A stretch of DNA of 64,000 bases from Escherichia phage ECBP1: the sequence record NC_018854.1. One strand, written 5' to 3'. Numbering within the stretch: the stretch's first letter is position 1; the number at the start of each line of letters is the position of its first letter. A program made the position numbers and the translations under genes. The notes beneath the pieces were generated by a model that did not search any database, was not told the origin of the DNA, and saw nothing but the letters and a program-made list of their open reading frames with translations. Below, one piece after another: positions 28,662 through 28,853 of this stretch.

Positions 28662-28727
28662 TCCGGTGTAGGTACTAGTGTCGTGCACGGCATAAGTGTT
28701 CTGGTTCGAGTCCAGACGCCGGAACCA
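28662..28727 (+). ncRNA. tRNA-like mini-element: acceptor stem + T-arm + encoded CCA, no D/anticodon arms
   Basis: 5' TCCGGTG pairs with 3' CGCCGGA (one G-U); T-arm TCTGG-TTCGAGT-CCAGA; 3' A-CCA; only 29 nt between A9 and T-stem. Confidence 0.35.
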
Positions 28728-28729
28728 AT

Positions 28730-28853
28730 TATCAGTTGCACGAGATGGCTTGATATGTTCAAGTTTGGACTAAGTGTGACACCGCTAGATTGGAGAGCTG
28801 CTGCGGTAAGCTATAGACTCCAACCGGGGGTTCGAATCCCTCACTGATAACCA
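28730..28853 (+). ncRNA. long tRNA-like RNA: acceptor stem + T-arm + encoded CCA enclosing about 90-nt insert
   Basis: 5' TATCAGT pairs perfectly with 3' ACTGATA; T-arm GGGGG-TTCGAAT-CCCTC; 3' A-CCA; starts 2 nt after previous element. Confidence 0.3.

Follow-up and report, generated by a model that had tools for sequence, protein, structure and literature searches.

What do genes make that are shaped like those of tRNAs and cannot read a codon? The question is raised by two neighbouring elements, E1 (positions 28662-28727) and E2 (28730-28853), on the + strand of a 64,000-nt stretch of DNA from Escherichia phage ECBP1 (NC_018854.1), hereafter called the window. A sequence-only reading had taken them for small tRNA-like RNAs with processed ends and an encoded CCA, not for decoding tRNAs. 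Judged by sequence comparison, we show here that E1 and E2 are selected, structured, non-decoding tRNA-like genes lying among tRNAs. They are new, unannotated variants of phage tRNA-like stable RNAs, a poorly understood kind, and we consider it probable that each is a functional gene in its own right, for a small stable RNA that mimics the tRNA body and does not decode.

E1 lacks a D arm and has a conserved loop in the anticodon position

E1 reads TCCGGTG-TA-(29 nt)-TCTGG TTCGAGT CCAGA-CGCCGGA-A-CCA, and its parts are the following.

28662-28727, + strand: E1, the whole 66-nt D-arm-less tRNA-like RNA gene (sequence, covariance model R1, covariation, ARAGORN mitochondrial mode)
28662-28668, + strand: acceptor 5′ strand TCCGGTG, paired with CGCCGGA at 28717-28723 in 7/7 positions, including U6.G67
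28678-28693, + strand: central hairpin in the anticodon-arm position, stem GUGUC/GGCAU, loop GUGCAC
28700-28716, + strand: T-arm TCTGG-TTCGAGT-CCAGA (compensatory changes in two pairs; motif scan)
28724-28727, + strand: discriminator A73 and encoded CCA, the same in all variants

The coordinates, the paired 7-bp acceptor stem, the T-arm, the A-CCA end, and the U8 and A9 that follow the acceptor strand and precede a 29-nt interior are all as first described from the letters alone. The accompanying claim that neither element has an anticodon arm stands for E2, where a 12-nt linker takes its place, and fails for E1. In E1, a 5-bp hairpin occupies the anticodon-arm position within the 29-nt stretch, flanked by linkers of 7 nt (5′) and 6 nt (3′), and it is the D arm that is missing.

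We compared 11 distinct variants of E1 using a structure composed of the acceptor stem, the central hairpin and the T-arm. Across these variants 99% of cells are paired and 5 pairs are altered on both sides, with a covariation score that was reached by none of 500 shuffles. When the 3′ partners were slid by 1-3 columns as a control, pairing fell to 21-45%. Covariation is greatest in the central hairpin, in which 3 of the 6 pairs are altered on both sides, 100% of cells are paired, and the stem appears as GUGUC/GGCAU, GUGUU/GACAU, GCGUU/AACGU or ACCCU/AGGGU. The T-loop, discriminator and CCA are invariant. At acceptor pair 6:67, nine variants have U.G and those of the Klebsiella phages cp20 and 05F01 have C.A, so that a non-Watson-Crick pair persists there.

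The loop of the central hairpin, GUGCAC, is self-complementary and is found in 10 of the 11 variants. It is 6 nt long in the window, in phage N4 and in all Gamaleyavirus copies, and since no register yields 7 nt it cannot present an anticodon or decode. Phage IME11, Kaypoctavirus, cp20 and 05F01 have a 7-nt version, GUGCACA, which reads U33-GCA-C37. In its metazoan-mitochondrial mode, ARAGORN made a call with the exact ends 28662 and 28727: a tRNA of the D-loop-replacement type, with a loop of 6 nt and an anticodon of 2 nt that it left undefined. Covariance model R1 scored 96 bits at E1 in the window and 84-97 bits in N4, Kaypoctavirus, cp20 and 05F01. Minimum free energy (MFE) folding, one of the checks proposed for the sequence-only reading, recovered the acceptor and T helices of both elements, with a modest thermodynamic signal (z = -2.4 for E1).

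E2 lacks an anticodon arm and resembles a class II tRNA-Ser

E2 begins 2 nt past the CCA of E1 and reads TATCAGT-(89 nt)-GGGGG TTCGAAT CCCTC-ACTGATA-A-CCA. Its position, its perfect acceptor stem, T-arm and A-CCA end, the 2-nt gap and the length of its interior agree with the initial description.

28730-28853, + strand: E2, the whole 124-nt tRNA-like RNA gene without an anticodon arm (sequence, covariance model R2, covariation)
28730-28736, + strand: acceptor 5′ strand TATCAGT, paired with ACTGATA at 28843-28849 in 7/7 positions
28738-28777, + strand: D-arm-like domain, stem GCAC/GUGU around GAGAUGG, an inserted hairpin and UUUGGACUAA
28749-28763, + strand: inserted D-loop hairpin CUUGA-UAUGU-UCAAG, covarying (U-A to C-G, A-U to G.U)
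28778-28789, + strand: 12-nt linker ACACCGCUAGAU at the place of the anticodon arm (normally 17 nt), invariant in 8 variants
28790-28823, + strand: arm B, UUGGAG/CUCCAA plus AGCU/AGCU with the 9-nt loop GCUGCGGUA, in the position of a class II variable arm
28826-28842, + strand: T-arm GGGGG-TTCGAAT-CCCTC, with a compensatory G-C to A-U change
28850-28853, + strand: discriminator A and encoded CCA (sequence, variants)

Among 8 distinct variants of E2, 5 pairs are altered on both sides. Three of them lie in the acceptor stem (3:70, 4:69 and 5:68), which occurs as TATCAGT/ACTGATA, TACCAGT/ACTGGTA and TACTGGT/ACCAGTA, and the D-loop hairpin and the T stem contribute one double change each. All testable helices of E1 and E2 carry compensatory changes. 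The 60-nt core (columns 38-97) is invariant save for one A-to-G substitution in arm B that converts A-U to G.U; a copy in IMG/VR has G to U at alignment column 59, in the 12-nt linker. Within the core, ACCGC (28781-28785) may pair with GCGGU (28803-28807) in a candidate pseudoknot. Because the core is invariant, the outer D-like stem, arm B and this putative pseudoknot are compatible with the data and neither supported nor refuted by them.

Covariance model R2 scored 154-159 bits for the E2 copies of Gamaleyavirus and Kaypoctavirus. Its best matches outside E2 itself were the class II tRNA-Ser(UGA) genes of cp20 and N4, at 33 and 31 bits, with other tRNAs at 27.5 bits or less. The alignment places U8-G9 and the D-loop start GAGA(U)GG in register and sets arm B against the variable arm of tRNA-Ser. 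In addition, CCGGAGGTTCGAATCCTTCAC of E2 relatives and CCGAAGGTTCGAATCCTTCAC of the N4 tRNA-Ser are identical at 20 of 21 positions (CCGRAGGUUCGAAUCCUUCAC). The tRNA-Ser(UGA) of N4-like phages is thus like E2 in the start of the D-loop, in the long extra arm that precedes the T-arm, and in the T-arm followed by CAC. E2 differs in having no anticodon arm, a 15-nt D-loop hairpin, a longer extra arm, a different acceptor stem that drifts freely, and a total length of 124 nt versus 90 nt for the tRNA. Going by these sequence similarities, E2 was most likely derived from a phage class II tRNA-Ser by loss of the anticodon arm and gain of the D-loop hairpin and a longer extra arm.

Distribution among phages argues against decay

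A 206-nt query covering E1 and E2 matched 70 phage records. E1 is found in N4 (EF056009, 32862-32937; 98.7% identical and unannotated), which belongs to a different genus from the window. The N4 relatives SPSP, AL25 and Jura have E1 with identical ends, annotated by tRNAscan-SE as 'tRNA-Undet(nnn)' in the order Asn-Ser-Thr-E1-Pro, and KP8 has it as 'tRNA-OTHER'; the public tRNAscan-SE annotations in which E1 is noticed keep to these ends. The paper describing KP8 counts six tRNA genes, two of them unassigned. More distant copies, approximately 77% identical, are carried by cp20 (Efbeekayvirus) and 05F01 (a 147-kb myovirus of the Stephanstirmvirinae). In both, E1 begins 6 nt past the CCA of tRNA-Tyr and stops 6 nt short of the next tRNA, the spacing of a tRNA-type processing unit.

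E2 was found in Gamaleyavirus and Kaypoctavirus only. In KP8 the order is reversed, with E2 preceding E1, which indicates that the two are independent modules. Neither has a copy in the 5426 complete Escherichia coli genomes that were searched. The loose pattern TAGG..GTGCAC..GGTTCGANTCC retrieved from IMG/VR known E1 copies, ordinary tRNAs, chance matches and one possible distant look-alike (L149). A search with the 16-mer GACTAAGTGTGACACC gave one new E2 copy (L169) and five chance matches.

These observations bear on the possibility that E1 and E2 are functionless, decaying pseudo-tRNAs of a shrinking tRNA cluster. Two further elements nearby do have that appearance. ARAGORN made poor calls on the + strand at 28155-28226 ('Ala-cgc') and 28518-28596 ('Cys-aca'); both are degenerate, have no CCA and fall under the Rfam threshold, the former with an A.C mismatch and the latter with a poor acceptor stem. 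In contrast, E1 has hardly changed between genera, or in an unrelated myovirus, although its surroundings have been replaced, the substitutions in the elements are compensatory, and the CCA, discriminator and T-loop are invariant. We therefore regard decay as highly improbable. The comparison across related phages that was proposed as a check on the sequence-only reading, with its conservation and covariation, points to selected RNA genes.

Neither element has the features of a decoding tRNA or a coding sequence

With respect to canonical tRNA criteria, both elements have the acceptor stem, T-arm and A-CCA; E1 has no D arm and a loop of 6 nt instead of 7 nt, and E2 has a 12-nt linker in lieu of an anticodon arm. 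A Rfam scan with 4227 families, including tRNA and transfer-messenger RNA (tmRNA), gave no match to E1 or E2 at E values up to 10; this extends to the tRNA model RF00005 and to YrlA (RF02553). ARAGORN in standard, intron and tmRNA modes likewise found no canonical cloverleaf with other boundaries that could account for the T-arms. Had one been found, it would have refuted the sequence-only reading by the criterion set in advance. Intron mode at an 80% threshold produced one spurious call spanning E1 and E2 and nothing else for E2.

Could E1 nonetheless be a working D-arm-less tRNA-Cys (GCA), and E2 a decoding tRNA with an unrecognised intron or an odd architecture? The 7-nt loops of IME11, Kaypoctavirus, cp20 and 05F01 read G-U-GCA-C-A with U33, and ARAGORN at a very low threshold calls these copies tRNA-Cys(gca). 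The loop of 6 nt in the window, N4 and Gamaleyavirus does not fit this proposal, nor does the C at position 37 or the absence of a D arm, and 05F01 carries a canonical tRNA-Cys(GCA) besides E1. For E2, the single spurious intron-mode call and the 12 nt that replace a 17-nt anticodon arm speak against decoding. We consider this explanation highly unlikely; normal decoding is excluded for E1 by its 6-nt loop and for E2 by its lack of an anticodon arm, in line with the sequence-only reading.

An ATG-started open reading frame (ORF) of 94 aa, 28563-28847 on the + strand, spans both elements, and the region might in principle encode a protein with incidental RNA features. The frame is broken by stops or a frameshift in 5 of the 6 relatives checked. 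Variable positions are distributed over codon positions 1:2:3 as 6:6:10 in E1 and 4:8:6 in E2, with no third-position bias. In KP8 E2 comes before E1, and in N4 E1 stands alone. The protein explanation is already refuted, and its probability is negligible.

The elements lie in a stable-RNA island of an N4-like phage

The window belongs to a Gamaleyavirus (Schitoviridae): its region 27800-29700 matches the Escherichia phages PD38 and Bp4 of that genus from end to end at 99% identity, and a minus-strand ORF of 3576 aa at 30715-41445 is the counterpart of the N4-like virion RNA polymerase. The surroundings of E1 and E2 comprise the following features.

27734-27761: weak promoter-like site (sequence scan)
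27786-29677, + strand: ORF-free stable-RNA island of ~1.9 kb, an N4-like tRNA cluster that contains E1 and E2 (ORF list; synteny)
29599-29620, + strand: strong intrinsic terminator, which closes the island

The island is syntenic with the N4 tRNA cluster between gp47 and gp48, and it is probably a single + strand transcription unit that ends at the terminator. A scan for sigma-70 promoters was uninformative, as its 6 sites are not above chance (3.8 +/- 2 expected). Five copies of the T-loop motif GGTTCRANTCC are present in the 64 kb of the window, all of them on the + strand within 28204-29361, compared with an average of 0.21 in shuffled sequences. Rfam recognises one clean tRNA in the island, at 29299-29372 on the + strand (64.8 bits). 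This tRNA is well formed, is kept in Gamaleyavirus relatives, and has the anticodon AAU (Ile), with an A34 that is unusual in bacteria.

Across the 2-kb island, three short blocks align between the window and N4 and nothing else does; one of them consists of E1 and the 65 nt upstream of it (96% identity). This 65-nt block (28597-28661, + strand), directly 5′ of E1, is kept with E1 in N4, Gamaleyavirus and Kaypoctavirus, and not in cp20 or 05F01. It holds the hairpin CCAGG-UGGAAUC-CCUGG, and a similar one, GAGG-UGGAAGC-CCUC, precedes the tRNA-Asn of a P1-like plasmid. Non-coding blocks at 29003-29095 and 29386-29437 (+ strand) are kept in N4 at 97.8% and 82.7%, respectively, and neither matches a Rfam family; the closing helix of the former covaries, GGGGUG/CGCCUC in the window versus GUGGGAUG/CAUCCCAC in N4. 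In N4 (L001), the interval between E1 and tRNA-Pro contains a further structure (2091-2169), in which a canonical T-arm, UUAGG-UUCGAAU-CCUAA, is enclosed by a terminal stem ~20 bp long that carries no CCA; this layout recalls the Y RNA-like tRNA mimics.

Long imperfect hairpins are found between nearly all modules of the island (for example 28236-28250/28326-28340 and 28854-28923). Similar ones occur in N4, in KP8 and in a lambdoid prophage, and they have the motifs GAGUAC.../...GUACUC and AGGUAAGAGCAUU in common. They may mark sites of RNase III-type cleavage or points at which modules were joined by recombination. Downstream of the island, 29677-30069 (+ strand) encodes a protein of the N4 gp49/Sf6 gene 66 family, and 30162-30680 (+ strand) a protein with a Tad2-like (Thoeris anti-defence 2) domain, which marks the flank as an accessory, counter-defence neighbourhood.

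A tag RNA related to permuted tmRNAs precedes E1

Upstream of E1 lies a second puzzle concerning phages and ribosome rescue, possibly linked to the first: an RNA with a tmRNA-like tag and no tRNA-like domain.

28340-28506, + strand: tag RNA, unannotated, related to the coding piece of phage permuted tmRNAs; tag frame 28391-28420, stop 28421-28423

Rfam gives a sub-threshold match to 'tmRNA_permuted' at 28320-28423 (33 bits). The tag RNA reads AUAAAU GCA AAC GAU GAU GUU GUU CUG AUG GCA GCC UAA, that is ANDDVVLMAA-stop, with no start codon in cis. The frame is kept in relatives, in which the last two alanine codons vary synonymously (GCA GCC, GCU GCU, GCG GCG), and related tags found elsewhere are ANEEAYLMVA, ANNETYLMVA, ANDDLMMVAA, ANDNVFLAVA and ANDNAFLMAA. 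The tag is followed by a hairpin that resembles tmRNA pseudoknot 2, its loop pairing with a CGAC further downstream, and then by a 3′ hairpin with a conserved loop. We also considered the helix 28236-28250/28326-28340 as the P2 of a permuted tmRNA enclosing a tRNA-like domain. We rejected this candidate because the sequence inside the helix varies and contains no T-loop, and because similar hairpins follow most modules.

The tag RNA is present in 381 phage records, where it is never annotated and usually lies within tRNA clusters; among its carriers are N4-like, P1/P7, Ackermannviridae, Ounavirinae and lambdoid phages, together with Klebsiella phages of ~46-57 kb. It also occurs in E. coli, where 685 of the 5426 genomes have it, for the most part on plasmids (those listed are ~80-143 kb, and the one examined, pSA186_4, appears P1-like). 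The related resume sequence occurs 117 times in IMG/VR, and at 25 of these places ARAGORN recognises a complete permuted tmRNA that includes the two tRNA-like halves, whereas at least 77 copies of the N4-type tag RNA start at GUUUUCG, which resembles the tmRNA motif GGUUUCGAC, and are without acceptor strands. Two IMG/VR contigs, L184 and L186 (the latter ~160 kb), contain complete permuted two-piece tmRNA genes with G3:U70 and the tags ANDEKFALAA and ANDEVFALAA. Literature searches on phage tmRNA and tag peptides found no description of the tag RNA or of its tags.

Relatives carry further tRNA-like genes that have perfect acceptor stems, aberrant anticodon loops and, in all but one copy, an encoded CCA.

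L003 (KP8), 1414-1488 and 1668-1743: anticodon-defective tRNA-like genes
L008, 2403-2478: anticodon-defective tRNA-like gene
L159, 3074-3149: anticodon-defective tRNA-like gene
L005, 2222-2299: anticodon-defective tRNA-like gene
L165, 2442-2524: anticodon-defective tRNA-like gene

The KP8 gene at 1414-1488 has G3:U70, A73, a 5-bp stem and a tetraloop. A family designated UACCCRG has a 6-nt loop (9 nt in 05F01), and a family designated UCCCCGU has an acceptor sequence in common with the 3′ hairpin of the tag RNA. Their recurrence in relatives suggests that anticodon-defective genes form a class and are no accident.

The tag RNA suggests another explanation for our elements, namely that E1, E2 or both supply its tRNA-like domain in a multi-piece phage trans-translation system. 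It is related to the coding piece of a permuted tmRNA, varies synonymously, and has neither a start codon nor a tRNA-like domain in cis; E1 and E2 are tRNA-like, have no usable anticodon and lie less than 350 nt away, and KP8 has the extra anticodon-less gene with G3:U70 and A73. Several results are at odds with this scheme. The discriminator is A73 in both elements, and pair 3:70 is C3:G70 in E1 and U3:A70 in E2 (C3:G70 in E2 relatives), so that alanine identity is found in neither. The conserved tmRNA D-loop analogue GGAUUCGAC and the GGAC that precedes the T-arm in E. coli ssrA are absent from both. Every combination of presence and absence of the tag RNA, E1 and E2 occurs, which identifies the three as independent modules: 66 examined loci have the tag RNA without E1 or E2, and N4, cp20 and 05F01 have E1 without the tag RNA. 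The duplexes that RNAduplex predicts for E1 or E2 with the tag RNA, and with other modules of the island, were no more stable than those of shuffled sequences (-41 versus -43 +/- 4 and -64 versus -66 +/- 5) and provide no evidence for specific pairing. Such a role for E1 or E2 is, in our estimate, distinctly unlikely.

A broader proposal, to which we give a slim chance, is that N4-like phages run a split form of trans-translation in which a tag-template RNA derived from a permuted tmRNA works with separate anticodon-less tRNA-like RNAs. The partners, as part of the same slim chance, would be E1, E2 or the G3:U70 tRNA-like gene of KP8. Were this correct, stalled ribosomes in infected cells would be rescued with a phage tag (ANDDVVLMAA, ANEEAYLMVA or others) in place of the host tag, and the presence of the tag RNA would extend the split system to P1-like, lambdoid, Ackermannviridae and Ounavirinae phages.

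Possible roles as processing signals or tRNA mimics

A further alternative is that E1 and E2 serve as processing punctuation only: tRNA-shaped RNase P sites that set the ends of their neighbours and yield excised RNAs with no function of their own. One such end would be the 3′ end of the upstream tag RNA, and in KP8, L126, ST4 and L169 E2 directly follows the tag RNA hairpin-ACCA. E1, likewise, directly follows the conserved 65-nt block, and tRNA-like units or long hairpins separate every module of the island. For this purpose, however, any tRNA would serve. Punctuation does not explain why the loop of E1 is nearly always GUGCAC and why the 60-nt core of E2 is invariant while the acceptor stems drift, and in cp20 and 05F01 E1 lies between ordinary tRNAs that need no added punctuation. 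We rate punctuation alone as unlikely, and return to the reading in which E1 and E2 are functional, non-decoding mimics of the tRNA body.

Several points weigh against that reading. The homologues are limited to approximately 70 enterobacterial phage genomes, and so narrow a set provides few independent substitutions. The interior of E2 is mostly invariant, which leaves its outer D-like stem, arm B and candidate pseudoknot without covariation support, and the folding energy of E2 is unremarkable (z = -0.9). Exceptions to the conserved features exist, namely the loop GUGCCC in the E1 of isolate Bas96 and the 3′ end AUCA in a metagenomic copy of E2. Both G3:U70 and the tmRNA-type D-loop motif are missing from the two elements, and searches of the literature on N4-like phages, phage tmRNA and tRNA-like RNAs found no description of either.

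If E1 and E2 are mimics, their biogenesis and action can be outlined as follows. They would be transcribed within the polycistronic island of tRNAs and stable RNAs and excised by the tRNA-maturation machinery of the host. An acceptor stem stacked on a T-arm with a 3′ NCCA is the minimal substrate sufficient for RNase P, and an encoded CCA beside a stem halts 3′ exonucleases. Given the 12-bp acceptor/T-arm stack and the 3′ NCCA of each element, RNase P is predicted to cleave at 28662 and 28730 and 3′ exonucleases to trim to the CCA, so the mature RNAs should be 66 and 124 nt long. The acceptor stems drift while the loop of E1 and the core of E2 are fixed, which suggests that the tRNA-like half is a handle and that the fixed parts contact a partner. 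The former would recruit tRNA-handling proteins and provide ends and stability, and the latter would touch one specific partner.

In this manner a factor of the host or the phage that recognises the tRNA body may be titrated, blocked or exploited. Among the candidates are toxins and defence nucleases directed at tRNA, an aminoacyl-tRNA synthetase indifferent to the anticodon, and a translation or ribosome-rescue factor. SerRS ignores the anticodon; this property, together with the apparent tRNA-Ser ancestry of E2, makes SerRS a candidate partner of E2. A role in counter-defence is plausible in view of the Tad2-like neighbour and the additional anticodon-defective genes in relatives. Phage tRNA clusters are usually read as a supply of ordinary tRNAs, for codon usage or against host defences. 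E1 and E2 keep just the part of a tRNA that enzymes grip, and E1 is present in the classic model phage N4. Their preservation across genera with compensatory changes, together with the further anticodon-defective genes of relatives, points to a class of phage tRNA mimics.

Comparison with known systems

Like E1 and E2, the tRNA-like domain of tmRNA combines an acceptor stem, a T-arm and a CCA with no anticodon, and E1 and E2 adjoin a tag RNA. It differs in having G3:U70 and the GGAUUCGAC/GGAC elements, and E1 and E2 have no Rfam tmRNA match. E2 has a GACUAAG heptamer followed by a helix strand in common with the tmRNA consensus, which we treat as a lead and not as evidence. The derived idea that E2 is a tmRNA minus its coding region was rejected: it depends on that single, post-hoc heptamer and helix strand, the Rfam tmRNA model misses E2, and R2 prefers tRNA-Ser. 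A reduced tmRNA has been described in mycobacteriophage DS6A, which keeps little beyond the tRNA-like domain, and a review suggests that a similar domain-only molecule could inhibit trans-translation, perhaps by titrating SmpB (PMC4131195).

The D-arm-less tRNAs of mitochondria, such as metazoan tRNA-Ser(AGY), have the same three-helix layout as E1, the fold that ARAGORN found in mitochondrial mode with its 2-nt 'anticodon'; a 7-nt loop is confined to some lineages of E1. E1 differs in having, in the window, a 6-nt loop, in carrying a conserved palindrome in place of an anticodon, and in belonging to an E. coli phage. The EF-Tu and ribosome of E. coli are not adapted to D-arm-less tRNAs.

In YrlA, mascRNA and the tRNA-like structures of plant viruses, all known as tRNA mimics, a T-arm/acceptor mimic engages tRNA enzymes. 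YrlA ends in a Ro-binding stem and has no CCA-tailed acceptor, whereas the ends of E1 and E2 form a CCA-tailed acceptor stem.

By analogy, the closest counterparts of E1 and E2 are the species 1 and 2 RNAs of T4 (rnaC and rnaD), small non-decoding RNAs at the end of a phage tRNA cluster, and the comparison drawn in the sequence-only reading is apt in this sense. In rnaC, a T-arm, CCGGG-UUCGAAU-CCCGG, lies by an acceptor-like stem around ~100 nt of non-tRNA structure, much as in E2, and rnaD ends in an encoded CACCA. The terminal stem of rnaC is mismatched and has no encoded CCA, and T4 has no counterpart to the minimal, D-arm-less E1. The likeness does not extend to sequence homology or covariance-model similarity; on the T4 locus (L128), R1 and R2 match tRNA genes only, and neither rnaC nor rnaD. 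A 2010 review described the roles of rnaC and rnaD as unknown. The T4 RNAs set an unsolved precedent half a century old, and since N4 is easily engineered and its E1 is a 66-nt gene, the function of such RNAs can now be tested.

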